Part shown: piece by piece, positions 1 to 61,647 of the stretch | Position numbering within the stretch: position 1 is the first letter of the stretch | Layout: each line of letters begins with the position of its first letter | DNA from: Amphiscolops sp. MND2022 | Lineage: Eukaryota | Reading direction: 5' to 3' | Assembly (NCBI GenBank): GCA_964187785.1 | Contig: OZ076409.1 | Coordinates: 54,686,001-54,750,000 of the forward strand | DNA: 64,000 bases | Notes under the pieces: model-generated | What the model was told of the DNA's origin: nothing | The model's input: the letters and a program-made list of their open reading frames with translations, nothing else | Database searches by the model: none | Made by a program: the position numbers and the translations under genes

Positions 1-3000
1 TTTGCTGAAGAACTTCAAAATCGGACAAAACTCCCTATTGACAAAACGAAACAAAATAGTATGCAATCCTACCTTAAATATAAGGAGTATTAAGACCGCA
101 AAGCGAGAGTGGCTCCACTCGAGGAGAACGAATATTATTTTGTTTCACAGCCGAGAGCTGATCACCAAGGGTGAAAAATCCCACTTAGGGATTACCGTTG
201 GGTTAGACCATTTGTAGTGCAAAAATATTAACTAACGAAAATTAAATAGTACGCCGACTCGAAACAGCAAATCATCGATACTCCAATGTACTTGAGCCAA
301 TCCTGAATCCGACTGAAATAACCATTCTGTCCAATGATGGAAACCTAATTAGGACAAACTCCCTACTGTATCCTGAGAACGCAGTCACCGGCATGCTTCA
401 ACTAAGTGACCTTCTACAAGAACCAGGGGACCTTACCTTTTGCCCTGCACAAGTCACATTGCCTGAAGGCAATATTCAAATACCAGTGAATAATTTCATA
501 GATCACCCCTTTAAACTCAAGAAGGGACTTCTTATTGCTACCTTCTCAGTCATGACACCGGAACAGATGAAATATGTCAAACCGGTCGATCCAGTGTCAA
601 CCTGGCATTTATTACAAAATGACCAGGAGCAAGCAGCCCTTTGTGTTAGCAGTCTTATCAAGACAAACAAAAATCCGCAAACTCTGAAATCTATTTGTTT
701 CCTACCCCAGAGAGTCCTGAAAACCCTGAAGAACACACGCCTATCCAAAAAAGAATCTTACGTGAATTGCAGGCATTAAAAGACCTGGAGATCCTTGATC
801 CCACAATGGACGAGGAATCCAGGGCAAAGTTCCAAGAAGACTTCGACTGGAAAGATTCCACTGTTGCGCCAGAAGAAATAGCGAAGTTTGAAGAATCACC
901 TGTGGAGTTCCATGATATCTTTGCAAGACGCTGATTTGACATCGGGATGATTGAAGATTTCAAAGTGAAACTGACTCCTAAGAACGATGCCCCAGCTTAC
1001 AGTCAAAGTCTTCCAGCACCGATCCACTTGGAAGATGATATTCTCGTTGAACCATGCTAAGAGCGATGCTGCACAGATATGGTCTTATCACATCTTCCGT
1101 TTTCAAACTATGCTAGTCCAATAGTTGCGCAGAAAAAGCCAAATGAGAAACTCCGACAACTGGATGACTTGAATAAAAATCAACATTTCAATTGCGGATG
1201 ATAATTTAAATAATAAACATCCCGTCAGCACCGTAAAGCCGATGCTGCCCAGCACATGGCAGGGAAAAATTCTTTTTTAAACTGAAATGCTCACAAACAT
1301 ATCATTGCCTGCAGATGGCCGACCAACGCTCAAAACAGATGTAGGCCTTCAGATTTGCTAGCCGCACGTTTGCATACAGACGTTTGGCACAAGGCCTTAG
1401 CAGAGCGCTTTCAGCATTTTCAAGCTTGATGAGAGAATACCTTGGCAAAGTCATCATAGCGGACCAATGTGCTCAATATGTGGACGACATCGGCATTGCG
1501 GCCAATGACGCTGACCACCTCATTGCCATCTGACAGCAACTTTGAAATGCATCCAGGAGGCAGGCCTTAAGTTGACAATGCACGAATGTCATTTTGGTGC
1601 AACAGAAATTGACTTCCTCGACTAACCACAAAAGCAAAATGTAGAGATCATCCTCGAGAAGACCAAACTCCCGAAGTCGAAAAAGGCTTTACAACGCTAT
1701 TTGGGATTCTTGAATTACTACCAAAATTATGTCTCAAGACTGTCCGAACGCCTAGCCCCATTCTACAAGATGCTCAAAAGTGACCAAAAGGTCCTAGTAT
1801 CTAAAGAATTGGTTCAACAATTTGAGGAACTTAACAAAACTCTAGACAAATAATGCGATCTAGCTCTGCAGCAGCCTCTTCGTAACAAGCAGGTTCCCGT
1901 AATGACAGCTGCAAGTTTTGCCGCTGCAGGATATGTGGTACTCATAGAAGACGACCCTAACCAGTGAATTGCCTCACTCCGCAAATCTCATATGCACCGG
2001 TCGTCTATGGTTCAAAAACAAGATGTCCATATATGCAAAGGAATTTCTCGCAATTTAGTTCGCATTCAAAGAGTTTGGACAATTTTTTGGGGAGCGCCAA
2101 AACCGGTCATAATCCTCACTGACAACAAAGCCGTAACTCGTTTTTTTTTCAAACGAAAATTGTACCCTCAACCCTGTGGAACACTTGTGACTATGTCATC
2201 CAGTTCAATTTTGTCATTGCCCTCATCCCAGGAGCACAAAATACGGCAGCGGAATACCTATCCCGCCTAGAATCGGATCCAAGACACAAACTAGTCATGA
2301 AGATCCGCGAGGATGTGCAAACTTTACCAATAGAAATCAATGTCCAATCAGCAGAAGTGGCACATGAAGACCAAATTTTCTATACAAACGATGATGATGA
2401 AACTGAAGAACATTGTTGGGCGAGGAAGGAAGCAATTCGAAGAAATCCCGCCACCGCAGAAACAGCAATAAATATTCAGGCAGCTTCTACAAACACGATG
2501 AAACAGCAACCTGAGATACAAACCCGAAACTGGATTGCGGAAAACCAACCAGATCATTATCGAGCAATTTAAAAATGCAGTTTTACAGCAATTGAAGGCA
2601 AAACTCCTTCATGAGCAATATTCAGAAAACGTACTGCAACAAGAAGCTCGATATCGTTACTACGCTAACAATTTAGAACGAATTGTAGTCAAGGAGGATA
2701 TCCTGACTAGGCAAAACTTCGAAGAAACAGGGAACGAAAATTACCATCACATTCTTCTCCCGCAACATTTTCTCCAGGAACTGTTTCAATCCCTTCAGGG
2801 GACAGCCCATAGGCACCCTGGCATATCGAAAATGTTACAGGCGATCAGACAGAAGAATTACTACCCTAACTTGGCTAAATATGTTAAAAGGTGGGTAGAA
2901 GAGTGTGAGCAATGCGCAAAGGACAAGCGAGTCCCTAATGCAACAATCACACCTGAACTACTCAGGTGTCAACGAAGATGTCATGCAAATCGACTTTTTG

Positions 3001-4130
3001 CCGAACCTTCCCACAAGTGGCGTATATGAAAATGTGCTCACTGCGATTGATGTTTTTTCACGCCTATCCTCTTTCGGACGCATCAGCAATCAATGTAGCA
3101 AAAGTTATCATTGATATTATGACCAAACATTCTCATCTACCGACATCACTTATGACGGACAAAGGAACGACATTCACCTCCACGATTAGCGCGGAAATGC
3201 ACAAATTTTGGGTATCACACTAAAATGTGCAACCACCAAGCATCCGCAAACGATCGAGAAACTAGGTCAAACACATGCATCTCTCAAGACAAATCTCAAA
3301 ATGGCATGTGGAGAATATCGCCGACAATGGCATAAATATTTGCCATTAGCTGTTCTGAATCATAATACGAGCTGTCACGCCATTACTGGCTGTGAACCGA
3401 CACGGGTATTCCATGGACGTAATCCATACAAAATTCTGGATCTCAAGCTAAGGAATAACGAGCAAACTTCGCCTACAACTGAATTTGAAGAAGAAATTCA
3501 AAATCGGAAAAAACTCCGTATTGACAAAACGAAACAAAATATTATGCAATCCTACCTTAAATATAAGGAGTATTAAGATTGCAAAGCGAGAGCGGACCCA
3601 CTCAAGGAGAACGAATATTATTTTGTATTACAGCCGAAAGCTGATCACCAAGGGTGAAAAATCCCATTCAGGGATTACCGTTGGGTTAGACCATTTATAG
3701 TGCAAAAAGTTTTACCTAACGAAAACTATATAGTACGCCGATTCATTACGAATAAAACCAAGATATTGCACCGTACGTATTCGACTTGAGAAAGATTATT
3801 TGATGACTTTAACAAAAGAAATTAAACTACTCAAAACGTGAGAAATGAAACTTCTGATTGGCCGGATTCAGCTGTTACCGCAAAAATGAAGAACACCTCT
3901 TGCCGGACTTGTCCAAAGAACAGGAAAACGCTGCAAACTTTCCAGAAGAAAATACAGTTAATGAAAACAATGAACAAGATTCTCCAAACAAAGGGGCTGA
4001 TTTTATTGTGCCCGAAATATCCCAAAATGAAGATAGAAATGAAAGTCTGAGTCCTAGAGCAGGGAGATAGAATCAATAGAATTTCAGACCTAACCCTAAT
4101 ACGAACTACTCAGAAAATTTCAGATACTAA
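1..4130 (+). mobile_element. Decayed Ty3/Gypsy pol region (RT - RNase H - integrase), many stops and frameshifts
   Basis: RT catalytic YVDD at 1477-1488; RNase H motif ILTDNKAVT (~2110); integrase Zn finger HRHPGISKM...CEQC (~2808-2916); integrase core QIDFLP (~2986), TDKGTTF (~3154) and WHKYLPLAVLNHNTS. The RT-RH-INT order and these motifs are typical of Gypsy. Confidence 0.95.
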
Positions 4131-4399
4131 GAATTGAATTGTTCATGAAAACAGGAGTTCTTTTCTTTTTCTTTTGCTTTTGGTCCCTTTCTGATATCTT
4201 TCGAATAATATATGGACAAAGGAGCAAACAATCCCCCTCAAACAAATAAACATAGGGATTGAGGAACGCAACAAAGAATGAATAAACACAAATAGAAACT
4301 TGTATCAAACATATACTACAACATCAAGGAAATAGAAGAAAACAAACTTGGCAGTTTGGAAAGTGTACATAAATACAAATGTACAGACGAGGATTGATA

Positions 4400-5440
4400 G
4401 GATCCTCGAGCAGGACCACTTGTGGCGGAAGAAGATGCTGACCCAGATCCGCCACTTACGGTTGTTTCTTTTTGGACATACTAGGGACAGATAACACAGG
4501 CTTATCAACAGTGACTGAAGTTCTTGCAGCTTCTGTACGATCAACGCGGATTGTGGGCCCAGCGACAAATGCCTTGTAGGACGACAACAAGGATTTATAA
4601 ATTTTAGATCAACCAAAGGTATCGACGAAAGTCTTGTGGTCATTGGCAAAAGCAGACCGGCCGTAATCCGTAGATAAAAAGGAAAACTTGGACAAACTCG
4701 CATCGCTACTGCAGTGAGCAACCGAATCTGTCACTCCGACCATGTAACATTGCCCTTGAAGAATCACATCAGTAAAACGTCCTCAATAGTCCGTTGTGAG
4801 GGCTGGGTGAGTTACAAAGACAGCAAAGCTTGGATAGATACAAGAAGTGTGATCGGCCATGTAAGAAATCGAGGTTCATCAAGAATGCAATTAAGCCTGG
4901 GGAGGACTCTGTCAAGTCAAAATCTGGAAGAAAAACGGTCCGGAGATGGTCTAATAGCTCCAAATACTCACACCGGTAAGCCTCTTCGTCTGCATTATTT
5001 ACACCAAGAGCGCAATAAGGAGGTATATAAAGCTTCGAAAGGGCGGAGGGCAATTTGAGTGGGACGCTTGAAGCGAATAAAAGGATCAAAGGCTGCTAGT
5101 CCTTTACCATTGTTTGCGGTGAGCCCAGATTGACGAAGGATCTCATCGAGCAGGTAGCTGGTATAACGAAGCCAACATTATCAGCCGCCTTTGGATGGTG
5201 GCTTGACTTGCCCCGGTCCCAAAATGGATGCCTTCTGCCTTCTGTTTACTGGCTGAATTGACCTTGTTGGTTAGTTTCTGGTGGATGAATTTCCGTCGGA
5301 CGTCTTGAACTCAAGCAGCAGGAACTAAGCAATCTCAAGAGGCACCGTGTCAGTAGTGAAGCCTTGAAAGCACAATTTGTGAATAAAATGGCAAACTTCT
5401 CCACATGAGTAAAAGAGGCTTCTTGTCTTTGAGGCAAGTT
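4400..5440 (-). pseudogene. Decayed antisense accessory ORF between pol and the polypurine tract of the Gypsy element
   Basis: Relatively GC-rich block with long minus-strand frames, e.g. DASLSKFSFLSTDYGRSAFANDHKTFVDTFG*SKIYKSLLSSYKAFVAGPTIRVDRTEAARTSVTVDKPVLSVPSMSKKKQ (~4700-4460), plus ORFs 4769-5089 and 5246-5437. No recognisable domain. Confidence 0.45.
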
Positions 5441-5661
5441 TACTGAGAAGCTAGGTACATCTACAATGCAAGAGAAATGTCAGGAAACAGACAAGTACTA
5501 GAGAAAATGCAAAAACTCTGAGAGATAGTAAAATCATCGGTAATCAGTCGGAAGAACTCCAATTTAACATAAAAGAATTTGTCTCAGATGAGGGACCACT
5601 CGAAACTCTGGACCTAAATCAAAATGGATCATACTTCGGAATACTCAAAGGCGAGACCTTT

Positions 5662-5673
5662 GGGGGAGGAAAG
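5662..5673 (+). promoter_or_regulatory. Polypurine tract (PPT) of the Gypsy element
   Basis: GGGGGAGGAAAG immediately followed by TG (tgaaaccg, 5674), downstream of pol. Confidence 0.6.
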
Positions 5674-5983
5674 TGAAACCGTCTGTCTGTCGAAGGAATT
5701 AAGATGAAAGGCATATTAAGCAAAACAAAAAAGGATGAGTAGTCTCGACGAGACTAAATGAAAAACGTACTCGGCTGTGGACTCCTTGGCCTTTCTGTCT
5801 AGGGGCGTAATTGGTGAGATGTTGAACAACCTGCTTCCATTGAGAGATCATCTCCCGGCAAAGACTGGGTAATTCGAGCTGCTTAGAAGTTATGGTATGA
5901 ACAGGACAAGTTCCTTCGATTAACAGTTCTTCCTTATCACTACTACCTCTCCCCCCTACCTTTACATCTTATTAGCAAAGGAA

Positions 5984-8491
5984 TCAACTAACGCGGGTGA
6001 GGCATGGGGACTTTATAAACCAAGTTTTGCTAAGGGAACAGCCCAGAGACACCAACAGTTCTCGGAGGACTGAAAAGAAATCGATCCCAAACATGCTGTA
6101 GCTGGGCTTGTGCATCAGAATTGAAAGTTCCAGGCTGTCGAGCCTGGAGCACATCTGGATACCTCGTGTAAGGTACGAACTATAGATGAGTGCCTGGATC
6201 AAGCAGACTGGACACCCTGAGCAAGCAACAATGTCTGTTTGGGTAGAAGTTACAGAGAACAACCTAGCCAAAGAGCCCAGTTTGCCAGCTAGGTCTGCGG
6301 AGGGGAATGCGCTCCGACAAATAAAGACCCGACACAGCTCGTTGTTTTTCCAAAATTGTGCAGACATTATCCTGAAGGCGTTCTTGTCTTCGAATTCAAT
6401 GGAGAAACGCTGCTCGTTAGGAATCTGTTCTGCTACGTCTTCCATGGCTCGGGAAAAACCTGTTAGAAAATGGCCTAAACAGCAATATACACCTTTATGC
6501 GCCGGCAACAATAGCAACTGAAAACCTATGTGTCTGATACTTATTGATAACCTCTCTTCTCCCCAGTCGAAATCGCAGAGTGGAGCCTGGTTTATGGGAA
6601 GGAGCCAAGTCGTGCCCGCAGGTTTCGCAGCAGCAAAAAATTACACTGGTCCTTGATGAAGTCAGCTATAATATACAATTGAGTTCTTGAACGTGATTCG
6701 GGAGTGACCAGGGCAGGAGTATGGCTTTTCATGATATCTTCATAGAAGAAATATCTTTCACCTATGTCAATAAGTTCCGCGTGGATGAACTTTGGCAACT
6801 CGTCAGAAAATTTTAGCTCGTCAAGGATTTTCCCATCTCGTCCTCTGACCCTAAGCTGGACTTTTCCTGTGACGGTATCGACTGTCACAAGGTGTTCATA
6901 ACGCCAAGTTTGATCTCGACGTAAATGCTTCTCACTTCTATGGTAGCGCAGTATTTCCAGTGTTCCTTTGGTCTTTATGGAAAATTTACGCTTGCAAATA
7001 TGGCACCAAACCATATGAGGGTTTTGGACCGGATCAGCAGGACCTGAATTGAAGGACCTTGTCCACCCAATCTTCTTGAAGAATTCCTACCGCATTGGGA
7101 CTCCTCGTTGCGATACTCTTTTGGTCCTCTTCACCTTTTTAGTTCCGGGCTCCTCTTGAGGTCTTTCAGTTCGGGTTTGATCTCGTATTTCAGACAGATT
7201 CACGTCTTGGCTGGTATAGTCTGGAGACTCAGGTTCCTCTGTTTCTTCTGCCGGGAAATGTTGGCCGTTGTGGTTAGCCCTGTTGTGAAGATCTCTTGAA
7301 GGAGGTTGAGATGAGTGCCATCTGCTGTCCCGACACTTTCATCACCACTAGAAACGCCTCCGCTCCTTGTCAGCATGCGTAGAGGCCTCTGATTCGGGAT
7401 CTGAGTCAAAACTGGAATCAGTGTGATTTCCACGCCTCGGGGTTTGAGCCCTGTTTCTCACCTTGAAGTGGTCCGTGCATGATTGCGAGGTAGTAGGGAC
7501 ACGCTTCACAGCGTCCAAGACCATTCGCTTTATGGTATTGTACGTCATACTCATGGTCCCAATAGTTAAGATCTTGAGGAGGTGGTACAATTGAGATTCG
7601 GAGAAAATGACGGTTGGGTACCCGATAGGAAGGCTGACGGCGTCAGTTGTTTCGAAATATTCTTTCAGAAGGGCCATGTTTTTCCGAGAGATTTCATGTA
7701 TTTTAGGTCTGGGGACAGAAGTGCCTGACGTTGATGGTTCATTCAAGCCAGCCTTATAAGGAACGAGTCCCGACTCGTCCCCACTTTCAGTTCCTGACTC
7801 TGCTTGATGAGGAACCCTTGCGTATAAGAAAAGGGTACTAGTTAAGCCCTCATCGGCTCCTGTCGGCTCTCCCTCGCTTGGGTCAGTCATGAACCTGACA
7901 TTACTAGCCCACTCTGTAAGGGAGGGGCATCGCACACGGCGGAGGTCGAGTCATCCTCTGGCTGGGCAAATGAGCTTGTTGCTCCTATGGCGCTGGTACT
8001 GTAAGCTGGTAATAACTTCGGTAATGGGGTTCTGGAGTGTTCTGGAGGAGGACCTTCCGCATGGGGAATATAAAAAACTGGAGTGCTAGTCCTGTTACGT
8101 TGTTCAACCTCAAGGTGAGCGAGTCATGACTCTGAGTTGCCTGGTCGCGCATTGTCTCCAAGATTATCTTCTTCAGACCCCTTCTGTATAGCAGCCGGGG
8201 TTTTTTCCATAATGCTGGCCATCACGTCAGCAAAGGCAGTCACATATTCGTCGCTCTCGACACTAGCTGGAGAAGAGACCGGCAATCGGTTTGACTTGGC
8301 TGCGGGTTGTTGTCTTGACATCTTAGCAGCAGGATCATTAAGCGGGGAAAAGGAGGCGAAGAAGAGACCTTAGGTCGTACTGATAGTCCACTGCTCGGGC
8401 TTGGATCTGGTGTCCCTAGATTCGTTGCGCTCTTTTTATCTAAACGGAAGGGAATGAAATTTGGCGATGTGCTTCCTTGAAAGAAATCCAT
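5984..8491 (-). pseudogene. Frameshifted cargo gene with BED-like zinc finger and partial hAT-transposase-like segment
   Basis: Consecutive minus-strand ORFs 8491-8240, 8321-8124, 7935-7348, 7433-7200, 7014-6592 and 6517-5984. They give a Ser/Pro-rich N-terminus, then FKKIGW...WCHICKRKFSIKTKGTLEILRYHRSEKH (BED/hAT-type finger), then QRFSIEFED...AQFWK...CRVF, resembling the first strand of the hAT RNase-H fold. Confidence 0.55.
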
Positions 8492-8883
8492 TTTAACGCA
8501 TTTGAAACCTTCCGGAAGTGTCTTTCAACTCAATCAAAACGTGTTGACACGTGAAACTTGGTTATCTGTTAATTGCTTTCAAGCGAGCTGTTAAATACCC
8601 TCTTGAGTCACATTTGACAATAACAACTCGATAACCCCTTACACCTCTCTTGAAGTGGGTGTTGATAACGGATAACTAATTGATATTCAAAGGAGGCCGA
8701 CATTGGATGTAAACTCCTTTGCGAAAGTTTAGGCTTACTCGGGGCAATTTACTAAGTGGTAAACCGACAAAACGAAATTGCCGGGAAAAGGCTTGATTCA
8801 GAAATTTCAGAAACTTTTTCTGTCTAAAATTTTCGCCTAACCTAGTCGCTCCTTGAAGTTTCGAAAATTACAAGAAAAGCATA

Positions 8884-9674
8884 ATGCAAAGATACAATTT
8901 GTCCAAAAGACTTTTCGACGCGGATGACTTGGACTCCGATCTATCTAGTGAGTCCGTAATTTACATCACAAGCGATGAGAGCAGAGAAGTGTTTGATGAG
9001 TGGGAATCTGACTGTTCAACAGACACTGAACAATTGATCGAGACAATTGAAAGAGAAGTCTGTGCAAGCCCCGTGTTGTTTGGCGGCAGAGCAATGACAG
9101 TTGAAGGTGAAGACGAAGAGAAGGTAGCTGGCCCAAGCACCGGTCAGACGCACAAACTGGTCACTCACAAATTGGGATCAGAATATTTTGACGCAAGACA
9201 ATGCCACGCTCCCAAAAAGAAAGTTCTCTACAGAGATTTCAACTGTGCAAAACCATCATCACAGTAGCTGATTCACCTATGTCATTTCCCCCTCATGAGA
9301 TGGGCCCGCCGATGGAAACTCCTATGAATCTGGACGTAAATTCAAGCTGTAGAGACAGTTATCACATACCGAATACAGGGCCTTACCAATACGTGAGCCA
9401 GACACTTTACACGGGGTTTTTAGTTTGTGGTCGTTCAGCCGATGCTATCAAGAAAGAAAAGGTAGATACATACATGAGGCGATCGACGCCCAGAAACGAG
9501 CCGGATCAAGTGACGAAACTCAGAAGGGAAGCCTATGAAAACGGTCGGAACGCAGGCGTGTTTCCCTTATTAACACCAGCTGTGTCGCAGGCTGCCGCCT
9601 GTGATGGCACAAGAATAACAACAACAGCAGCAGATGATCAGGAAATAGCGCCCGGAACCGTCCCCATTTATTGA
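8884..9674 (+). pseudogene. Frameshifted cargo ORF of unknown function, divergent from the BED-finger gene
   Basis: ATG at 8884; overlapping ORFs 8884-9267 and 9201-9674 with an acidic N-terminus; two AATAAA signals directly after the stop (~9676-9692). Confidence 0.5.
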
Positions 9675-10937
9675 AATAAAAAACTAATAAACATTTTTAG
9701 TCAGTGAATTGTACTTATTAGGATATTTTAGAAACATTGTTGCTCTCGTTATTTTATTAGTCTGTTAACCGTTGGTAATGATCAAGTTGATTGTAAAGCT
9801 TTTGCAAAATTGGCAAATGTAATCTGAGATAAGCAAGCTAAGCAGCAGAAAGGAAACGTGTTCAAGTGTGGAAACGTCCTATCTCGGCAACGCTGCTTGC
9901 TGGTGACAATTCAGCCAATCATGGTGCAGTGATCTAATGCTATTAATACGAGCCGATTAAGCCCAAGTGACTAAACAAAGCTGACAAGTGAAAGAATGCC
10001 AGTCAAGTGGCCGGTCCCGGCAATCTATTACTTTAATTACGTGTAGTGCGCTACTTTACTGATAATAGTAAATAGGCCTGTCTAAAGAGTACCCAAGTTG
10101 TTTTTTCTGTCTATTACAGTAAATAATGACTTTCAAGAAGTAACGATTTGTTATTCGGAGATGCTATTTTTCATGTGCCGGTCCTTCGACCGAATGTGAT
10201 AGAAGCAATGTTCATTTTGGACAAAACCCTTCGCAAGCTGAGTTGATATTAAAATCAGAACATGGAAATCAGTGCAATACTTAACCAGATGTACAATGGT
10301 TTACGTGCTCAAGTATGTTGTTTGATAAGTTGATACATATTTCTAATACCGTTATTATATTGAAGGTATTGGAATTTGTTGATGTCACTACTTAGCTGAT
10401 GTATTTTCCTTTAGGCCTGATTAGTATAAATTCCTAAGGTGCTTTGATAATGTTGACACCGCCATTAGAGTATAATGTTAATAGCAGTTGCTCACCTTAG
10501 TCATGTTCTCTTTTGGGACTTTGTTGTTTAAAATCATACGTCATTCTGTTTGATAAAACACAATTGGAATGTTGTTTTTTCTATTCAGTAATATAAAAAA
10601 TGTGAATGTCACCCTCTCCGGAGTATATACACCCTAACTTTTCCTGAGAGAGATACAATTTGTTCAGTTCTACTACCATTCACACACCTTGAAAGTATCC
10701 AAACCTGATTTCCTGATAACATATTACACTCAGGTTTTCTTGATACCTAGTACTAGAAAACAGAAGAAAGCTAGAAAATCTAGAGGAACAGAAATGTTAT
10801 CAGACATAAAAAATCTAGATATTATGTTGGGAGGCAATAACCTTAAAGGGAAGGAAGTGAGTTTAGTGGCTCCATTAGGAGACCTGATAGTCCAAATTTC
10901 AATGAACTAGAAAATATTGAAGAGGACAGGTACCCTA

Positions 10938-11799
10938 TGTAACGGCTGCTTGATCCCTTTGATGTAACTGCAGTTGACCAAACTTTACGCCGCCCTGAAT
11001 TCGGTGCTCGGCACTGCGGATCGTTACCGAACACTGCTTGCTTCTTAGATTAAAAGGACTGTATCTTGACTTAGTAGGATCCAGTGATCCCGAATTGCAC
11101 TCCTTCCTTGTCTCTTAACACGTCCAACTCTCCACAAGTTGAGAGTAACTAACTTAGTCGCCCTAAGTCTTTGGCGAAAAGTCGAAAAGAGGTGAAGAAA
11201 TGAATTGAGAATATATGTGGTCCTGAGACCCGACTTTAATACAACTTTCCGATCAATTTGTTACTATCTAACAATGGTATACATATCGTTCACAATTCTA
11301 CGGTAAATATAAGTCAAAATATGAAGTATAAATAAATGACATTTAAGTGAATTATTAAAGTTATTGGCTATGTAAACGAACCATAGTGTGAGTATAGCAT
11401 GTTGGTTAGGTGGGTTTTAAAGCATGTTTACACAATGCAAATATCATCAATTTCAACAGCGTTACATTCTAATGTGGTCATATAGGTAAATAGCAATGTT
11501 TACAATATTGGCATAATGACCTTGAATATCACACATGTGAGAGGTAAAGGGGGTTATAATGAGGGAATGACCTTGAAATTTGGCCGGTGTGTGCGTGTTA
11601 GGTACCTGCATCTGTGTACCAAGTTTCAAGGCTCAATGACTAACAGTCTTCGAGAAAACCCATTTGGGGGGGTTTCAAAGATTTGTGATGATTGGATTTT
11701 CTTCAAATTTTCATCTAAGTTTTAAGAGTTTAAGTTCTTGTATCTCAACCAACATGTACTGAATCGAGTTTCTCTGCCTTCTGATGACTGGCGCCAACA
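10938..11799 (-). repeat. 3' LTR (862 bp) of the BEL/Pao-type element
   Basis: TGTAACGG...GCCAACA; about 98% identical to 16179-17028 (about 16 substitutions plus an 11-bp and a 1-bp indel, by eye). Confidence 0.97.
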
Positions 11800-11854
11800 T
11801 TGCCGGCCCGGTTTTTCTACCGAAAAACACTTTCATAGAACAAGGGTGCCAGTT

Positions 11855-13239
11855 TCACCACTGATCTTTTAGGTTTGCCATCTTTGTCGTGCGCTTTCGG
11901 AAAACTTCTAATTTGTTTTCATGCTTGTCAGTTCTTTGCTGTGTTCTTTCTATACTGCAATGATTCTCCAGCCCATATACCAGTTCGTTGACCATAGGGT
12001 TGTTTTCCACAGATTCACATAACACAACAGAAAAATTCCTTAAAACCTTTTTCCCTTTCGGAGTCACAGTTTTCCCAGTTATAACAAATTTCATCATCCA
12101 CATCTGATATTCATTGAGTTCAACCGATTGCGTTTCCTTTGAACCTTCAAAAGCCATGATACAAAAATGCTTCTGCTTATTTAACTAGACTTCCATAATT
12201 ACTTCAACATCCGAAGAATAGATTTCCAAATAAGTCGAAAATGTCTCCAGACAGTTTCCCAAGATTTGCTCTGCTACATATTTCCTCATCAAAGTTGACT
12301 GACCGCGGGGAAGGTGGTATGTCAAACTGAGTTCGTTCTCTAATGGTTCCATACTCAAGCTTTCAATTTGGCGTTCGTGAGAGATTATTGAATTATCCAT
12401 CATCATCATCATCAGTAGATAGAGAGAATTTCCAACATTACGGCGACTGGAGTTTTTTCTTTTGTGTTCAATGCTCTCTTTGCACCCAATAGGAGAGATT
12501 TGAGTTGTGAACTCAGTCGCTGCGCTGCATTTTGCTTTTTCTTTTCTAGCAGGTCGTTTTTCGCAGCTACATCCCAGTTTTCTCCTAGAAACTGCAATGC
12601 TGTGGAGTTTGGCTTTCGCTCCTGTTTGTAGAGCGTCACCGAGCTTCTCTCACCACAAAACTCCAATTTCGTTTCATCTGGGTTTCTTACAGGCTCCCAT
12701 TGATCATGAGAAACTTCCAATTTACCAAAACGCCCATACTGAATCCACATTGCCTTGAACGGTGCAGCCGGCCCATTGCAAGACCCGTTGCTCCAACCTG
12801 TTGCTGTTGGGACTTTCAAAGAACATATTTGCATTCTGGTCACTGATAGCTTGTCTCTCAAATCATGTAGACAAAGTGGTTCATCTTGCGGTGTTCCATT
12901 CACGTTCAACTGAGCTCCTTCCGCCATTCCATGAATCAAGTTTGAGAGAGGTTCAATCTTCCAAGTTCTTTTCTTCGGTCGCTTGCCGTGGCCTTTGCTC
13001 AATTGAGTTTTATCAATGCCATTAGCCTGTGACACTGCGTCCATCCCAGAGTTTCCATTACCAGTGCAATGGTTCCATACATTTCTTTGACTCGGGATAG
13101 TTTCTTCAACAAGGTTTACTTCGAAGTCAAAGTCTGATTTCCTCTCGAAGGTTGCATTCATGGTTAGTTTATCATCTCTGGCATTGCCTTCCACGGGTTT
13201 GTCGTGCGTCACTACACCGTGGCATAGCTTTCTATACAT
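11855..13239 (-). pseudogene. Downstream gag/protease-derived ORFs of the BEL/Pao-type element (275, 75 and 100 aa)
   Basis: ORFs 12412-13239, 12185-12412 and 11855-12157 continue on the same strand up to the 3' LTR; no catalytic motif is intact. Confidence 0.5.
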
Positions 13240-13304
13240 GACTATTTCATTCCAATTGTCTTACAGTGCAAATTGCTGCTCATTCACAAAACCATAACTT
13301 GTGA

Positions 13305-15032
13305 TCAATTCAAAACGTTTGTTTCTTTCTCAAGGAGTAGAGTACTGTCATAAAACATTTTCACTTGGAATAGTTTCCCCTGTTGTACGTTCTGTAGTAC
13401 GGTGGAAACGTCTGTCCTATCTTGCAGCAGTTCCAATTGCACACTCGTTTCTTCCGAAGTTTGTTTGCTTAATGTGAATGTTAAGCTTCGATGCTCTTTC
13501 CTTGTTTTAGTCATTGCGTAGTCCAAGTTCTCCTCTGTTTGCACTACCAAGTGCTCACTCATGACCAAGTGAATCTCTTCTTCCAAAACTTGTTTTGTAT
13601 CCACGAGGAGGGTCTCTGAACGGAAGTCTTGCCAGCCATTGTCTACAACGAACTTTTCTGGCCAGTTCCACATCCATTCTGCGATTAGATTTCTCGAGGT
13701 TCCTTTGTTTGCATTGCCTTCAACATTTGTCATATTTGAGTCTTCATGTGCTTCACGTTTGATAGTTTTGTCTTGCAACTTTCCATGGTTTGGACACATG
13801 CCTGAACACTTCATCTGCTCAGGTTTCCATTTTTTCATTGTACACGTTCCTTTTGTTGTCCAGTCAAGAGCTTTGAGCAAAACCATTTCTTCTTCCTTGC
13901 CCAAAAGTTCGTCTTTTCTTTCCAGCGATTTATTGTGATCACTTGAACTTTGTTTGCTCGAAGTTTGCTTTGTTTGAGTTTGCTTCACAGTTCTCATCAT
14001 TGAACTACTTTCAACGCTTTTATGGTTCGAGCGCAAATGTGATCCAACAACGCTCTTTGAATCAATTCGCCCAAAACAGGGTTCCTTGTTGTTTCTCAGG
14101 TGTGACTCCTTGTCCGTCACATCATTCATGTTGTTCCCAGAGTGACGGCTTTGCCCACGCCGTTCAGTTCCTGCAAGAGGCTTCGTTGAGGTCGAGGATG
14201 CCTTGAAGGTCCGATAACATTCCTGCGGACCTTTGCATGGTTGCAATTGCTTTGTCACTTTCTGTGATTTTGTCGGTCTCAGCCGAGTTCCATTTCGCTC
14301 TAATTCTATTTCTTGGTTGGTAACTTGTTTAGTCCTCGCGCTTTCTTCTTCGAGCCTAGCAATTTCGAGTTTTTTTGTGAGGGTATCAATTTCATCTTGC
14401 TTCCTTCGCATTTCGGCTTTGCGTCGTCCGGCAGCTAGCTGTTCATCAATTTCATCTTGTTTCTTCATTGCTTCCAGTTCTAGGAGAATTATTCGTTTTG
14501 CATTTGATGACTTAGAACTAGCTGTTGTTCGGTTGCTCTTTGAGGTTGCTTTGACTGACCCGTTGTTGCTTTGTTCGTGTAACACTTTCACATCACTGAT
14601 TGATATAATCTTATCACAGGGGTTGGCTATTCCAACAATCCGTCGTTCTTCATCAGCTACCCTGTTTGACTGTGCCGGTGATTGATTTTCACTAGTTGCT
14701 TCTACTGAGCAATTTCGTTTCGTTGGATTGAAGCTACTTTGCTTGAGCTTCCTTGTGTAAGGGCATCTCATTGCCACGTTTGTAGAGATTCCACTTGCCA
14801 TTTGCTGAAATTTCGTTTTGTTTGTCTCGCCTTTTGGACCCTTCAACATTGTCTTTACATCAGGGAACCAATACTCCCAGTTAGCTTCTAATTGTGCAAA
14901 GAATTCTTCCCATTCAGTCACACTTCGACTGAGCTGTCTTTGCCTTTCTTCATTTGTGAGGTCCAACATAAGATCTACGTTATGCAACATTGCTTGTTTG
15001 TTTTCGCTATATTCGAATACCCAATCATTCAA
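13305..15032 (-). CDS. 575-aa gag-like ORF of the BEL/Pao-type element (coiled-coil)
   Basis: Ser-rich stretch followed by a charged coiled coil (LELEAMKKQDEIDEQLAAGRRKAEMRRKQDEI...LEIARLEEE), as in BEL/Pao gag N-termini; degenerate knuckle CSGMCPNH. Overlaps the upstream ORF 15029-15283. Confidence 0.65.
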   Translation of the reverse strand: MNDWVFEYSENKQAMLHNVDLMLDLTNEERQRQLSRSVTEWEEFFAQLEANWEYWFPDVKTMLKGPKGETNKTKFQQMASGISTNVAMRCPYTRKLKQSSFNPTKRNCSVEATSENQSPAQSNRVADEERRIVGIANPCDKIISISDVKVLHEQSNNGSVKATSKSNRTTASSKSSNAKRIILLELEAMKKQDEIDEQLAAGRRKAEMRRKQDEIDTLTKKLEIARLEEESARTKQVTNQEIELERNGTRLRPTKSQKVTKQLQPCKGPQECYRTFKASSTSTKPLAGTERRGQSRHSGNNMNDVTDKESHLRNNKEPCFGRIDSKSVVGSHLRSNHKSVESSSMMRTVKQTQTKQTSSKQSSSDHNKSLERKDELLGKEEEMVLLKALDWTTKGTCTMKKWKPEQMKCSGMCPNHGKLQDKTIKREAHEDSNMTNVEGNANKGTSRNLIAEWMWNWPEKFVVDNGWQDFRSETLLVDTKQVLEEEIHLVMSEHLVVQTEENLDYAMTKTRKEHRSLTFTLSKQTSEETSVQLELLQDRTDVSTVLQNVQQGKLFQVKMFYDSTLLLEKETNVLN

Positions 15033-16160
15033 TTTACCTTTGCAAAGAAAGAGCTTTGCTCGTCAAGCTTGTCATCCAAGTATTTAATCAGAGTCCGTAG
15101 TCTTCCAACTTGGGTGGCCACAGCGTCCACATAAAAGCGCCACACGTACCAGTCGGAATCATTTTCCAAATTTCTTGATCTGAGGTCCATCAATTCTTGG
15201 CTCTGATTTGTGTTTCTTTGATCAAATACATTTGTCATTCGAGGATGTTGCGCCTCGAGCAATTCTTTTTTTCTGGCTTTCATTTGTTCAGATTGCAGTT
15301 TTGTTTAACTGAGGGCTTTCTGACTACACACTAGTTTCTTGGCGTCTTTGTCACTATTTCTCAAACTCAGCAATTGGATAGATCTGAAGTGTCAACTGCT
15401 CAACCCAATAATCAATCGCCAATTCTTGAAGAATCAACCCAAAATGTCGATTATGCATGCCTTCTTTGACGGATTTGATTGTTTCGGTGGACCTCGTCCC
15501 AATGACTCGATCCTTTTGCTTTATTTGGTGGATATACTTGCAGCGACGTCTTAGTTCGAACCTTTTTTTCAATTAGGAACACGTTTCTCAAAGATACAGT
15601 TCGTCCCAAACTGGATTTGAAGCACACTTGCCTCCAGAGTGCTGCTAAAGCCCAACTCTCAGAGTACACATCCAATCCAGTTCCAAATCGCCCAATAGTC
15701 CAATACCAAAGCCCCAGTGTACACTTTCCCAGAGTTCCAATCACCAACTGTAGACCCAGTCTCCAAAGTTCTCGTTCGTCGTGAATAGTTGTTTCAGCTA
15801 CTTGTCGCGATTCCGTTTGAGTGCGAGGACTCTTGCAATACTTTTCGATTGCTGTTTGAACAGGATCACCATCTGCCGTTTCTACGTTTGGAAGAACCCT
15901 ACAATTAGGCTTGTCCTTCCAGCTCTCTGGGTTGCCAATGAAACCAGCACGGAAGCTCTTTCAAACTTCGTGTCACTTGAACAGATAGATGTTGTGCCAC
16001 ACGTATGATGACTCTAACTGCTCACGTGTCTTCCAACGAAATTTGTTATACACACGTGATGAAGACGACGTTCCTCTTGCTGTGTCCACCCAGATTGATG
16101 TCCACTCCAACTGTTGATGTCCGCCCAATGTGTTGATGTTCGCCCCAAAATTGTTGATGT

Positions 16161-16176
16161 CCGGGTCAGCGGACCA
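16161..16176 (-). promoter_or_regulatory. Primer-binding site, probably tRNA-Tyr type
   Basis: Minus strand reads TGGTCCGCTGACCCGG 2 nt inside the LTR. It is complementary to a tRNA 3' end ...CCGGGTCAGCGGACCA (C1-G72 pair and A73, as in eukaryotic tRNA-Tyr). Confidence 0.75.
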
Positions 16177-16178
16177 AA

Positions 16179-17028
16179 TGTAACGGCTGCTTGATCCCTT
16201 CAGTTGACCAAATTTTACGCCGCCCTGAATTCGGTGCTCGGCACTGCGGATCGTTACCGAACACTGCTTGATTCTTAGATTAAAAGGACTGTATCTTGAC
16301 TTAGTAGGATCCAGTGATCCCGAATTGCACTTCTTCCTTGTCTCTTAACACGTCCAACTCTCCACAAGTTGAGAGTAACTAACTTAGTCGCCCTAAGTCT
16401 TTGGCGAAAAGTCGAAAAGAGGTGAAGAAATGAATTGAGAATATATGTGGTCCTGAGACCCGACTTTAATACAACTTTCCGATCAATTTGTTACTATCTA
16501 ACAATGGTATACATATCGTTCACAATTCTACGGTAAATATAAGTCAAAATATGAAGTATAAATAAATGACATTTAAGTGAATTATTAAAGTTATTGGCTA
16601 TGTAAACGAACCATAGTGTGGGTATAGCATGTTGGTTAGGTGGGCTTGAAAGCATGTTTACACAATGTAAATATCATCAATTTCAACAGAGTTACATTCT
16701 AATGTGGTCATATAGGTAAATAGCAACGTTTACAATATTGGCATAATGACCTTGAATATCACACATGTGAGGGGTAAAGGGGGTTATAATGAGGGAATGA
16801 CCTTGAATCTTGGCCGGTGTGTGCGTGTTAGGTACCTGCATATGTGTACCAAGTTTCAAGGCTCAATGACTAACAGTCTTCGAGAAAACTCATTTGGGGG
16901 GGTTTAAAGATTTGTGATGATTGGATTTTCTTCAAATTTTCTTCTAAGTTTTAAGAGTTTAAGTTCTTGTATCTCAACCAACATGTATTGAATCGAGTTT
17001 CTCTGCCTTCTGATGACTGGCGCCAACA
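16179..17028 (-). repeat. 5' LTR (850 bp) of the BEL/Pao-type element
   Basis: Direct repeat of 10938-11799, adjacent to the PBS. Confidence 0.97.
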
Positions 17029-17645
17029 CCCTAATTCTAGGGAAAATAGATCAAGTAATAGTGCTCATTATTGCCATATTTCAGCTGGTACAGACTCTAG
17101 TGCTGAGTTTAGCAGATTATGAGGCGAGCTCAATTTAAGGATCTCGAGCGAAATAGATGAAGTGATGAACAGTGTCACTGTTCAAATCCAAAGGGCTCTT
17201 AATGATGCAATAAGCAATCAAGTTTTGCCCCAAAATAAAAAGGTCCTCAGGGTCGGTTCAGGACAGATGACACAGAAAGGATAGAACGTCTCGACCGAGA
17301 GACCGGAATGGAACACCGAAGGTAATCCTATTCAGAAAATCAGGAAAAGTTCAAGGAGTGAGCCTTTCTGTAATCAAAATCTGTGACATTTTCAAAAACG
17401 CAATCAGCAGTTTATGGATCAAAAAGCCTTCATATGCTCAAAAAGGCAATAATTTTGCTTTTCGATACTTTTCGTTTACAAGTATCGTCCAGCTTCTAGC
17501 TATTTTGATAAATATTACAGGCAGTTTTACGACAAAATAGAGAAGAGAACAGAAAGCCCAATTTGAGCTCTAAAGTAACAAAGTTGTTGAAATGCGCGCA
17601 ATACTTTTTTTGAAATGAAAACCCCCATAAAAGTGTTGAGACACC

Positions 17646-19895: not shown

Positions 19896-20182
19896 AGTGT
19901 ACATGAATGCGACTCGATCCCTCGCAAAAATCAGTTTTCAAAATTTTACTGTTTCTCGGGAATTAATTTTGATTAGAATTATCCAAAAAAATGTCTGATT
20001 TTTCTCTATCTCATGATAGATTTCGTTCGTGGTAATCAGAAAGAAAACAATGTGGGAGTGTAAAGATATAAAGTTAACGGGGAAGCTGGATTACGTTTAA
20101 AAAGAGAAGTCAAAAAGATGTCGTTTTTTACGACTAAGAACAGTGACAAAATCGATGCAAATGCTGTTTAAAAACTGTTCGA

Positions 20183-20382
20183 NNNNNNNNNNNNNNNNNN
20201 NNNNNNNNNNNNNNNNNNNNNNNNNNNNNNNNNNNNNNNNNNNNNNNNNNNNNNNNNNNNNNNNNNNNNNNNNNNNNNNNNNNNNNNNNNNNNNNNNNNN
20301 NNNNNNNNNNNNNNNNNNNNNNNNNNNNNNNNNNNNNNNNNNNNNNNNNNNNNNNNNNNNNNNNNNNNNNNNNNNNNNNNNN
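20183..20382. other. Assembly gap (200 N)
   Basis: Run of N. Confidence 1.
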
Positions 20383-23374
20383 TCCTGAGCAATAGGAATT
20401 ACTTCTTTTTGCCGACTATTATATTGCGATACAATATTTAACAACTTTGATGACCTAGTATGTTGAAGGAAAACGTTCCAGACATAGTTTATCAAAACAA
20501 ATGATGAGAAAAAGAGGAAAAGTTAGGTTCTTTCCATGCATAATCTTCAAAACTTGAACATATACTGGACAGATAGTTTATGAAAATTGTTCACTTCGCC
20601 TCCTGTCACGCGTGGCTGTCCTGTTCCTCGCCTAGGTGTGCGCATAGAATGCCACATAACGGTTGGCAGCTGTGGATCAATGTGACAATTCGGAGGATGT
20701 CGCTCGGGGGTTTCACCTGAATAAAGTCAAATGGAATGTTTTATGAATCTGCCTTACACTGCTTGACTTAAATACGCAAAAAAAGATAATACACGTTACA
20801 CTCCCTGTATAGAATACGGTTCGAAATTATTTTTTTTATCATTAAAATCTTTTTTTTTGTATTTTGGCTTCTTGATTTTCAAAATTTGTCACAAAAAACG
20901 AAAAAAACAGGACACAAATGCCAACACGAATTGAAAACTCATTGGGAGTTTTTGCGAATGAATCGATTATATATTTGGCGGAGTATATATCTCAATCGTC
21001 GAAGTAATGATTCGCATCTGGGACCACGCTGGCAACAGATGGCTTAAAAGTGAGGCCAAATAGCGATTTCTGTCAATGGGTTTGAATGCTGAAAAACAAT
21101 ACGGTGTGTTGATGCATGATACTCAGTGCGTGTTGATAGCACGTCATTTAAACTTTGTGTCACTAAGTGTCAGTCACAAAAAGGTAAGTGTATCGCAAAC
21201 TTATTAACCCCTCACTCAAACTAAGTTTCAATAAACTGATTCTGACTTACTAGTTTCTCGCGGAATATTGGCGGTTTACACCTTGGAATATTTCGGGCCG
21301 AGAATTGACTTCATCGTCTCCGAGAAAGTGGGTTGGACTAGACATATCAAACCAACGGTGTCAAAGAGGGTGTCGCGATCCGGAATATCGTCTACGTTTT
21401 GGTGCGCTTTCGCTGTGAGGGTCGCCAAATTCTCATCGTCAATTGCGCTTTGAGGAATCACCTCGCCTGCTTCATTTTTCTTTGTCCATGGTTTCGGTTT
21501 GAAAGCCACAAAAAAAGTTCGCCGATATACCCCAAACAAGGCACACGGGGATCATTGGAAAAGGTTCGCCCGGTACAAATCATCTCATCAAGCTTAGCCC
21601 TCGTGAACGCAGGATAGAACTAAAGTAAATGTAAACCAATATATTATTTTAGAAGTTCAAAAGTACCTTATGTTCTCCACAGTTCGTAAGTTTTGGCTCA
21701 ACGTACAACGTGAAAGTCCTAACAACTTAAAATATGTAAAATAACGCGCAAGCGCATACTTGTTTCTAAGTAGATAGAAAACGGTAAAATGAACGCAGGT
21801 ATGTCATTATTCGGCAAGTATTTTTGAGTCATTTTCCGAGTAATCCGTCCAATTACAGTTTTGCGAGTAAAAAGCCTGTAGTTCTGAGAAAGAGCCTGAA
21901 CATCCAAACAATAAGCCACATTTCTGTGAAGATGCGTTCTTATATTGCCAGTTTCAGAAAACCGTATAGCAGTGAGTAAAATTGAGCGATAACATACGGA
22001 TATATGGTTTCATAAAAAAATAATGGAAACATTGGTGAATTTCCGAAACAATTTCTAAAACCTTTGACCATGTGTTCAATCCAACTCGCAGGTACACCTT
22101 ATTGCGACTAACCCTCCGTAACGTGGAAGCACAATTTGTTCTTGGATGAAAATATTTCACTGATAAGACAATTGTATATGAGTACAAATGCCTGTCTCTA
22201 AAACTGTTTTGACATTCTGGCACAAAAACTTCTTTCGTTTCCTTATTAGTCTGTCCAAAAGATCAGAACTTCCTATCACTTCATATCACTTTAAAATTGT
22301 ATAAAGCGGCTCGCCGGCGATTTATCAGAAATAAAACCTTTTGTGCAATTTCAACTGACTGTCGATGTAATGGATAGGAATGTTTCGACATCAATAATTT
22401 TATGGGACCAATATTACGATGTCGACCTAAAAGTAATTGAACCTAGTGACTTTTTCCCCCAGGGGCCGCTTGGGGGAGGTGGCGAAATGAACACGTGGTC
22501 CAATTATTCTCTGAACTCCATATGAGAATAAAACATTTTTATTTTCGTTAAGAAAACTAAAAAATATATGACCACTCTTTCCATATTTTTTTGGATCTTT
22601 TCTCCTAATTAAAGATTCCCCCCAACACACACAAAATAAGCGTGGTAATCTTAATTCCCCACAACTATCAGCGAGAGTTTCAGTTGCGCAGTTAGAGATA
22701 CAAATTACTGCAATTTGACTGGTTTTTACTATTATTTCAATAATAACTTCTCTCGACCTGACCGCTCAACTGGGGGAGATTAAAAAGTGGAGAGGGGGGG
22801 GGGGGGCGTTGATTAACAGAAAAAAGCATTGTTTTTTTTGGGAGTGCCTACTCGAATGTCATTGATTAAAACTGTATGAGTATTTTTTTTCACACCGGTA
22901 TTCTTTGCATCTTTTATCTACGCCTGTTTGATTCAAATCGGCTTCTCAGAACAATACTGCGTTAGTTAGTCATAACAACAACCAATGGCAACTTTCGTGC
23001 ACGGAAATTTGCTTTAAAAGTTCGATTATAGCCTGCTGGGCCAAATGGGAGCGGTTTTCCCGAACCTCAGCCTCCTCCTGAAGAAAGCGCAATTTGCTTC
23101 GAGTATAACGTTAAAATTCGCATATAGCGCTCTAATTTCGATTCCCTGTTTCCTGCTTAGTAAATTTGGCAAAATGCAGCGTACTTCGGTTTCAACATCA
23201 AAGTTTCTGATATAGCGTGCTCAGACGATATGGAGCGCTTTTTTCGAATTAAAATTTACGCCTCATCACTAAAATGCAAATTAATTCCGATATAACGTCA
23301 AAAGTTCGGATACAGCGTGCTATGTGATATGACGTCAAAATTTCGGATAGCAATAAAAAATTTTTGGTGGATAT

Positions 23375-36570: not shown

Positions 36571-37154
36571 AGGTTTCACGGTTTCATGGTCTCAAGGTCA
36601 TCCTTTTTTCCGTGAGGATCTGTAGAGATCGTGCTACTGCTATGTCAGGACAACTGCATATCTGCAAGGATCTTAACAGTTGTTCAAAGATTTTCTGTAC
36701 AGGGTTTTTTTGATGAGATTTTTTTCCGGATCTTCTTGGAAACAATGTATTGAGCTTTAGAGCTTTTTCAACAGGTATTTTAGTTGACCAAGGCTCAGTC
36801 CGTTGAAACTCTACATCACTCAAAATTCTTGCGCAGGAAAGTTTGTCCCCAACACGGTAATTTGATTGTCTGGGGAATTTTTGGTATTCGTGATACACTA
36901 ATTTATCCATTTCACTGGAACTTTCCGGAAGTGGTTATTCAACTTTGAGAGGGTCGTCTACCATTTTGACTTTGTTGTGGCGGATGTAATTAGACATGTG
37001 GCCAGCGTCTGTGATGGTAGAGGTATTCATAAAGTGCTGTTGCAGTATTTCGGGAACATGGTTTGGTGGATTAGCTCTAGTAATTGCTGGAAGTTTGGAA
37101 TACGTCATAGTATTTTATTGGCCATTTTCGTATGGTTAATTTTAGACAAATGCT

Positions 37155-37408: not shown

Positions 37409-37664
37409 TGCTTCAGATCATTTGAACTCAGAAAATATACTTTCCCTTTTAGTCGACGCTCACTTATAAAAAAAGAGCAGACTATAGTTGTAGCTTCTTG
37501 AAGACCCCACAGTTTTGATTGATAAAAGTTCGATATAAAATATCAAACTTTTATCAATCAAAACGGTGGGGTCTTCAAGAAGCTACAACTATAGTCTGCT
37601 CTTTTTTTAGTCTGCTCCGACTAAAAGGGAAAGTATATTTTTTGAGTTCAAATGATCTGAAGCA
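37409..37664. repeat. 256-bp intronic palindrome (foldback/MITE-like)
   Basis: Arms of ~125 bp around an AAA spacer at 37537-37539, with a few mismatches and one short non-matching patch. Confidence 0.93.
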
Positions 37665-61505: not shown

Positions 61506-61647
61506 TTTTTTAGTCAGCGCCATTTCCTTTGAAGGAAAAAGTGACTATTACAGTGACTAGTTTTTTCGTCAGACAACAGAATGTGTTTTTCAGAATTTCT
61601 AAACTACTGGATCGGCAACCCGAAACGCATCTAAGTTAGTGCAAAGG
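61506..61647 (+). mobile_element. 5' part of a HINE-like element interrupted by an LTR
   Basis: tttttagtcagcg...gact.ttacagtg.ctagttttt matches the reverse complement of 45880-45937; 61620-61647 matches the reverse complement of ~23668-23695. Confidence 0.65.

Follow-up and report, generated by a model that had tools for sequence, protein, structure and literature searches.

How does a gene with the marks of a DNA transposase come to lie in antisense directly behind the pol gene of a retrotransposon, and to which of the two elements does it belong? The question arises from a window of 64,000 nucleotides (the whole stretch of DNA that was analysed), which is AT-rich, repeat-dense eukaryotic DNA with nested repeats abundant throughout. 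A sequence-only reading had assigned positions 5984..7090 to a truncated hAT-like gene with a BED finger, captured by a retrotransposon. We found that the locus is a spliced minus-strand gene that lies tail-to-tail with a decayed Gypsy pol (255-4127), and its parts are as follows.

1..260, plus strand: second copy of an integrase C-terminal stretch, either an internal duplication or an abutting element.
255..4127, plus strand: decayed Ty3/Gypsy pol with protease-RT linker, RT, RNase H, integrase, and acidic tail, containing 27-28 stops or frameshifts.
4128..4459, no strand: short spacer, seen in the sequence, from the pol stop to the presumed 3' end of the antisense gene.
4460..5686, minus strand: presumed further exons, decayed (rest of the hAT-like scaffold), based on exon-like GC and reading by eye.
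5687..5770, minus strand: predicted intron 3, with a donor motif at 5770 and a pyrimidine-rich acceptor at 5687; the relative P0246 goes into Val at the same place.
5771..5896, minus strand: exon 3, 52% identical to the tail of P0246 as the one relative.
5897..5992, minus strand: intron 2, about 96 nt, with an acceptor that is not canonical in the window copy and an approximate end.
5993..6474, minus strand: exon 2, RNase H-like core with strands 1-4, assigned by 55-59% identity to natural exon-2 proteins and by fold.
6475..6544, minus strand: intron 1, 70 nt, with a donor that is non-canonical in the window copy, assigned by the pattern of a following Val in relatives.
6545..8491, minus strand: exon 1 of the antisense gene, with 10 breaks in the window copy.
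6925..7065, minus strand: BED-type zinc finger W...C-x2-C-x16-H(H)-x4/5-H, assigned by residue pattern and containing the finger motif first noticed.
7438..7701, minus strand: conserved helical domain of about 90 residues and of no known family (65% mean pairwise identity among 32 representatives).
8884..9674, plus strand: divergent sense ORF remnants (GC 0.47), whose membership in the element is uncertain.

Both motifs on which the sequence-only reading had been built are indeed present, on the minus strand and in two ORFs of different frame: W...WCHICKRKFSI...EILRYHRSEKH lies in a stop-to-stop ORF of 164 amino acids (6592-7086), and FSIEFED...FWK...CRVF in one of 218 amino acids (5984-6640). 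In the window copy, a frameshift near 6593 and a 70-nt intron (6544-6475) part the two. Of 711 candidates in a search with the finger ORF, 155 clusters passed E<=0.001, and those listed (120) are 60-74% identical to the finger ORF and comprise 1715 member sequences. A sensitive search with the relative P0070 gave 873 representatives at 50% identity. Given 155 related clusters, the motifs are not a product of chance. Full-length relatives have 660-730 residues, and their common start motif maps to window position 8491, where we place the start of the gene, 1.4 kb upstream of the segment originally assigned to it.

Just past the motif DFDW-x5, full-length relatives cease to resemble each other. 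This point is spanned by 126 of 266 representatives, of which 122 have Val as the next residue; in 118, the residue after it is Ser, Gly, or Arg. In-frame translation of a GT donor would yield these residues, and we assigned intron 1 to this point. In-frame read-through occurs in 19 proteins from 7 clusters, with spacers of 24-33 codons that are unrelated in sequence between them and that close with Gln (the pattern used for the spacer end permitted Gln or Leu) before AIFQH-like sequence resumes. The distant relatives P0193 and P0315 have no such spacer and are continuous in sequence, and in this sense they served as a natural control for the intron 1 junction.

At the position of intron 2, 25 of the 36 aligned natural exon-2 proteins arrive in frame, and 24 of these go on into Val and, as judged by eye, lose their similarity; the corresponding donor motif is at window position 5992. 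The 25th protein, P0246, has no intron 2 and runs on into window positions 5896-5771, with 52% identity over 52 codons, before it goes into Val itself where the window has the third donor motif (5770). As the reading frame runs three codons into intron 2, the ORF ends at 5984, and this stop, which had been taken as the end of a truncated gene, is thus located inside an intron. The splice pattern in relatives indicates a gene of at least three exons (8491-6545, 6474-5993, and about 5896-5771), with probably more down to about 4460. The GC content of 5686-4460 is exon-like (0.44-0.45, vs 0.36-0.40 in introns and spacer). The downstream ORF 4772-5095 had no relatives among 118 candidates and a best ESM Atlas match of 0.77, and Pfam was blank for the region 5686-4460. 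Equivalents of the hAT residues R318, W319, and E572 and of the C-terminal dimerisation region would fall in this region, and the third catalytic residue was not located. Read by eye, 5686-4460 resembles decayed coding sequence. The window copy of the gene is a dead relic.

Exon 1 encodes, in this order, a conserved N-terminal motif of 17 residues, an acidic/Ser/Pro linker, the small helical domain, a second linker, the BED-type finger, and helices, and the window copy is 56-57% identical to P0002 and P0139 over about 630 codons. Among the 32 family representatives compared, the two linkers are least alike, with a mean pairwise identity of 29% (linker 1) and 31% (linker 2), whereas the value reaches 80% for the first 17 residues, 65% for the helical domain, 81% for the finger region, and 58% for the helices after it. 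The N-terminal motif is retained in relatives that are only 32-42% identical overall. As for the finger, its C/C/H/H/H residues are kept in 31, 32, 32, 32, and 31 of the 32 representatives, and its first His, found in all 32, is a Tyr in the window copy. The BED finger of the sequence-only reading is seen as a residue pattern, present in 31-32 of 32 representatives, but not as a profile match, as Pfam returned no zf-BED hit although the Trp, C-x2-C, and His pattern is conserved. No part of the antisense gene matched a Pfam family above the cut-off, the relatives listed were likewise without a Pfam domain, and a PDB sequence search with a family alignment returned a single row, attributable to chance (E=1.1).

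An AlphaFold model of P0193, based on a 90-row alignment, had a mean pLDDT of 66, with values of 86-98 over the finger region (residues 260-380) and 80-93 over the helical domain. A structure search with the helical domain returned generic helix matches only, and a homodimer prediction for this N-terminal domain, run without an alignment, scored 0.01. Conservation is confined to domains and splice positions, which argues that the antisense gene is conserved and selected as a protein, and clusters of 24-92 near-identical members at the 90% level point to a recent spread of the gene. The N-terminal extension of 460 residues, with acidic disordered arms and two conserved patches, has the predicted anatomy of a transcription or chromatin factor.

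With the model of P0193, Foldseek placed Hermes at rank 1 (E=2.9e-3, 401 columns) and in 6 of the top 10 rows, a match that falls short of the 0.001 mark and has TM-scores of 0.14-0.19. The ESM Atlas search with residues 255-612 gave top clusters at 0.87-0.93, of which the named ones are DUF4371, ZBED1 or FAM200 RNase-like, DUF659, and zf-BED; at ranks 2 and 3, only 11-18% of the members carry family names, and the clusters share 155-161 features, compared with 170 typical for same-family matches. VIA-align recognized an RNase H-like fold for residues 464-548, which does not single out hAT among such folds: Hermes was 12th (Z 5.6, rmsd 5.1, 145 residues), with sugar kinases and integrases ahead, and was not among the top 50 rows of the wide VIA search. 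The first fold model, made from P0070 with the intron read through (pLDDT 45), had given no useful structure match. The succession of finger, helices, and RNase H strands is the hAT order. We regard descent of the gene from a hAT transposase as likely, and the hAT/BED origin that had been proposed is supported at moderate strength, with Pfam silent. What had been described as a captured, truncated DNA-binding module keeps its finger in this analysis, but is a spliced gene that also retains an RNase H-like scaffold and the 460-residue extension.

The catalytic register was taken from the range ends of integrase superpositions and the hAT motif, and is approximate by one residue. In the superpositions, the first Asp corresponds to E469 of P0193 and the second to C527 or S528, a placement that agrees with the hAT motifs. 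Residues were tallied in the window copy and the 36 natural exon-2 proteins. At the first site, which is on strand 1 and registers with integrase D64, Glu is found in 25 of 30 rows and Asp in one, and a second Glu follows two residues later in 26 of 29; only 14 rows have an Asp three residues past this first site. At the second site, at the end of strand 4, 30 of 34 rows have Ser and a single one has Asp, and that row is frameshifted. Where CxxH would have its His, 29 of 32 rows have Phe and none has His. Relative to hAT enzymes, exon 2 thus has Glu and Ser in place of the two Asp residues and CxxF in place of CxxH. Two of the hAT catalytic Asp residues, namely the first two, which are the sites tested, as well as the CxxH His, appear to be absent family-wide, and at these two sites the gene fails as an active hAT element. 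Judged from these two inferred Asp sites and the CxxH motif, this suggests a catalytically dead protein, which with its catalytic residues lost could not move itself. As the protein nevertheless spreads and is conserved, we infer that it needs a carrier that benefits from it.

The candidate carrier is the retrotransposon behind whose pol the gene directly lies, in antisense, in the window. The window pol is 76-77% identical over about 1250 codons to the open pol proteins P0339 and P0357, which head clusters of 1547 and 850 members; P0339 has the domain order PR-RT-RH-IN, and the domain search reported no chromodomain in it. Among close relatives, pol identity is about 85-90%, and the member totals of gene and pol clusters are similar. 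Pol and antisense gene are similarly decayed in the window, with 27 breaks in 3.8 kb (7.1/kb) in pol vs 12 in 2.6 kb (4.7/kb) in exons 1-3 (binomial P=0.26). The claim that the gene is inside a retrotransposon holds insofar as pol ends at 4127 beside the gene, but neither LTR of the pol-bearing element was located within the window, there was no clear PPT, and the 5' end is beyond the window. A pair of 863-bp repeats (10938 and 16179) was weighed as candidate LTRs of this element and rejected, since a separate element, with a 5-bp duplication of its own, lies enclosed by them. A scan of this one decayed copy for TIRs and TSDs (4128-4470 against 8492-10937) found none above shuffles, with 31 TIR-like pairs vs 17-39 in shuffles and a best TSD match of 5 of 8 vs 3-6. 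Together with the family-wide absence of catalytic residues, this agrees with the earlier view that the gene is not an ordinary nested hAT.

Whether the homologues also accompany Gypsy elsewhere was addressed by a proxy, as a locus search of viral, metagenome, and genome contigs with the family alignment had found no relative. Pol and gene contigs were paired by identical base count, which is only a proxy for the same contig, and the gene side comprised 469 proteins on 432 distinct contig base counts. In the close pol group, 16 of 86 contigs had a gene-bearing match where 6.8 were expected (P=0.0008 at a pooled size of 1.64 Gb, an internal estimate from recurrences among the gene's own clusters); the excess has P=0.027 at 1.1 Gb and P=0.37 at 0.7 Gb. 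In the more distant pol group, 1 of 33 contigs matched (Fisher P=0.022 vs the close group). Among contigs below 65 kb, 3 of 18 matched, with 0.15 expected (0.1-0.3 across sizes) and P<=0.004 at all sizes (0.002-0.004 at 0.7 Gb); on the matching contigs of 12,191 and 14,233 bases, an integrase ORF accompanies a full exon-1 ORF. When base counts were shifted by 1 to 100 as a control, one match appeared in seven two-sided trials. Short contigs are possibly richer in repeats, which the null may understate. Mantel tests of pol against gene distances gave r=-0.13 (P=0.75) for the 16 pairs and r=0.10 (P=0.38) for the 9 on shorter contigs; about 7 pairs are expected by chance, and the fragments differ in span, so that this test is weak, but it lends no support. 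Of the proposal that homologues always sit in a Gypsy context, the excess of shared contigs is thus in favor, but the co-phylogeny is not significant. Order and orientation are known from this window, where no LTR enclosing the gene was found, and elsewhere the linkage of gene and pol is indirectly supported.

The data were also compared with four other explanations. The gene could belong to a DNA element of its own, from a hAT-like family that is divergent or non-autonomous, which by chance lies beside pol here and on some shared contigs. This would fit the introns, which are normal in DNA-transposon genes, the missing Gypsy LTR, the absent co-phylogeny with pol, and a window so rich in nested repeats, and TIRs may have decayed in a copy that is about 20-25% diverged at the protein level. 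However, Asp is lost family-wide at both tested sites while conservation is strong elsewhere, which is unlike the decay of non-autonomous hAT elements, the TIR and TSD signals are at shuffle level, and the excess of co-occurrence concerns the close and not the distant pol group; we therefore regard such an element as unlikely. Less likely still is a mere passenger, which rides with the element while its product is useless to it, or of which only the antisense RNA matters, or from which the host benefits. The much greater divergence of exon 1 between families (about 50%) than of pol (10-15%) would suit a passenger, but open exons of 660-730 codons are kept in families that differ at half of their residues, and the confinement of conservation to domains and splice positions argues against it as well.

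Two further alternatives leave the protein a role in the element and differ in what it would do there. It might act at integration, where the dead scaffold would bind DNA or chromatin and tether or import the integrase complex in trans, in a LEDGF-like or chromodomain-like manner. Finger and scaffold are kept, the ancestor of this scaffold engages DNA ends and target DNA, the nearly invariant finger region (81%) and pol (about 85-90%) fit a shared partner, and no chromodomain was reported for the pol P0339 itself. On the other hand, the product of an antisense mRNA has no evident route into the particle, and the acidic disordered arms would be more typical of a transcription regulator, so that we consider this role improbable, to about the same degree as the independent element. 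The protein could also still be an enzyme that acts on element DNA with a rewired active site, for example with Glu in place of Asp and further residues in the unseen downstream exons. The conserved strand-1 Glu (25 of 30) and a further Glu two positions downstream (26 of 29) would be compatible with this, and the predicted downstream exons could hold additional residues; but the end of strand 4 has Ser and no acid in 30 of 34 rows, the CxxH His is found in none, and hAT activity requires D180, D248, R318, W319, and E572, according to the passages concerned in PMC6027215. A rewired enzyme thus seems about as improbable as a passenger.

Our preferred explanation is that the antisense gene is an accessory gene of a Gypsy lineage, hAT-derived, catalytically dead, and kept under selection, and that it most likely codes for a DNA-binding self-regulator; we give this reading as a whole an even chance. 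That the gene is fixed in this Gypsy lineage as an accessory gene for a dead transposase, whatever its role, is in our view probable. A more far-reaching version is possible, if slightly short of an even chance: a whole intron-bearing class II transposase gene would have been domesticated by an LTR retrotransposon, with introns shielded by the antisense orientation and a killed active site, and would have been selected over more than 100 families as an essential accessory factor, such as an integrase tether or an anti-silencing protein of the VANC type.

For the self-regulator, the following course of events can be envisaged. An ancestral hAT gene would have landed in reverse orientation behind pol. 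As the genomic RNA of the element is the other strand, the introns of the gene would not be removed from it by splicing and would survive reverse transcription; the intron-less relatives would fit occasional intron loss via spliced antisense RNA, or later intron gain. The catalytic residues would then have been lost, with the BED finger and the transposase scaffold kept and the long N-terminal arm with its two conserved patches gained or kept. Transcription could start from the gene's own promoter near 8500-8880, and the product would enter the nucleus, where finger and scaffold might bind the element's own DNA and the N-terminal motif might recruit a host factor, such that the element stays transcribed by virtue of a transactivator or anti-silencing factor. 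Between families, the finger region hardly varies. This agrees with a common target and complicates the explanation of any benefit specific to one family.

Vertebrate ZBED genes are host-domesticated hAT genes, as are DAYSLEEPER/SLEEPER (PMC3499209). Like the present gene, they are transposase-derived, keep the BED finger, and have no self-mobility, but they are low-copy host genes, whereas the present gene has well over a thousand copies in many families, so that another transposon appears to have taken the part of the domesticating host. The gene thus resembles host-domesticated hAT genes except that it is multi-copy and mobile. With hAT transposases such as Hermes and Ac and the DUF4371/ZBED1/FAM200 group, it shares the BED-type finger, the helices, and RNase H strands 1-4; it differs from them in the missing Asp at the two tested sites, the missing CxxH His, the TIR and TSD that were not found, the N-terminal extension of 460 residues, and its apparent transport by a retrotransposon.

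In position, the closest counterparts are found in plant Gypsy elements (Retand/TRP28, Grande gene23, and RIRE2), whose antisense ORFs, located behind pol and before the 3' LTR, are said in the relevant passages of PMC7264820 and PMC11963269 to have no similarity to other TEs and an unknown origin, with a nested-TE origin lacking support. As described in these passages, they share with the present gene the place behind pol, the antisense orientation, the occurrence in many families, a predicted DNA-binding nuclear product, and a proposed regulatory role, whereas the present gene can probably be traced to a hAT transposase, has at least two introns, and resides in an animal-type genome. Among giant invertebrate Gypsy elements, planarian Burro (PMC6431247) and rotifer ORF3 (PMC5408684) exemplify the capture of accessory coding sequence, and the extras are, in the passages concerned, sense-strand domains or ORFs and none of them a transposase; the accessory genes of brown algae, as presented in the corresponding part of PMC12477816, lie in DNA transposons. 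For the proposed role, VANC21 of VANDAL21 and plant mobile domain proteins, introduced in the section concerned of PMC8616336 as TE-encoded counter-silencing factors, offer an analogy only, as accessory TE proteins proposed to act on the chromatin of their own element, and VANC belongs to a class II element, unlike the present gene of a Gypsy lineage. A search of titles and abstract beginnings, with incomplete coverage of the literature, found no published case of such an antisense hAT-derived Gypsy gene. The antisense Gypsy accessory gene is a known kind, and it is unusual here in its traceable class II origin and its introns.

Antisense ORFs behind pol are a standing puzzle, and in this case hAT descent is visible. 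If our reading is true, it would be a case of TE-by-TE domestication across the divide between class I and class II, with the first traced origin of a Gypsy antisense accessory gene, and a transposase domestication in which the transposon, and not the cell, is the beneficiary. As a BED finger with a dead DDE scaffold is a domain of known biochemistry and many copies are recent, the function is testable. The Gypsy lineage looks to be among the most abundant of its genome, and TE annotation based on ORFs risks calling such spliced genes truncated, or the elements nested hATs.

Some minor features of the locus may be added. The segment 1..260 is 91% identical to 3484-3744 and aligns to residues 1384-1472 of P0339. 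Pfam gave no family above the cut-off for the sense ORF remnants at 8884..9674, which begin about 390 nt from the antisense start codon. The first approximately 100 nt of the spacer 4128..4459 resemble, by eye, the read-through tail of the pol relative P0445.

The decayed Ty3/Gypsy pol and the antisense gene, which is the spliced, probably hAT transposase-derived gene on the minus strand, lie among further features, as follows.

Features surrounding pol and the antisense gene
1-260: second copy of the C-terminal part of integrase, sharing 91% identity with 3484-3744
8884-9674, plus strand: sense ORF remnants, divergent from the antisense gene
10938-17028, minus strand: LTR element, separate from the probable Gypsy carrier, with paired LTRs and a target duplication
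~10750-10937 and 17029-17400; 36070-36625; 61631-62092; 31234-31887: remnants of one recurrent ORF type
40489-43455, minus strand: remnants of another Gypsy pol, recognized by eye
56299-57947, plus strand: remnants of a non-LTR (LINE-type) reverse transcriptase, recognized by eye

The integrase stretch at 1-260 adjoins pol at the protease-RT linker and is either an old duplication with a 3.5-kb period or a junction. On the other side, the sense ORF remnants at 8884-9674, the N-terminal part of which is acidic, begin approximately 390 nt from the start of the antisense gene, and a Pfam search with them found no family above the cut-off. They possibly represent a second accessory gene that shares a bidirectional promoter with the antisense gene.

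Among the natural protein relatives of the antisense gene, P0193 and P0315 both lack intron 1 and retain the second donor, and P0246 is devoid of intron 2. As these relatives differ in their introns, the variation points to intron loss or gain within a mobile gene family.

The nested LTR element is bounded by 863-bp LTRs with TG...CA ends and 97% identity to each other, and its target duplication comprises 5 bp. It contains two ORFs of 585 and 282 codons, for which a Pfam search returned no family above the cut-off. Its insertion splits the copy at ~10750 of the recurrent ORF type, which starts with a basic STRxQK-like motif; this copy shows a weak match to 36071-36154. The remnants of this ORF type may mark another abundant element or the boundary of the probable Gypsy carrier.

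The other Gypsy pol includes an RNase H-like ORF at 42144-42551, also recognized by eye. A long near-perfect palindrome at 31504-31678 (87-nt arms, 98%) sits within a repeat-derived ORF, and another is found at 37409-37664 (~128-nt arms, 91%). An assembly gap (N run) is present at ~20180-20400, and a tandem array with a period of ~185 nt occupies 54506-55770. At 59120-59506, tandem 15-nt units are arranged in inverted fashion, much as at the termini of small foldback elements or MITEs.
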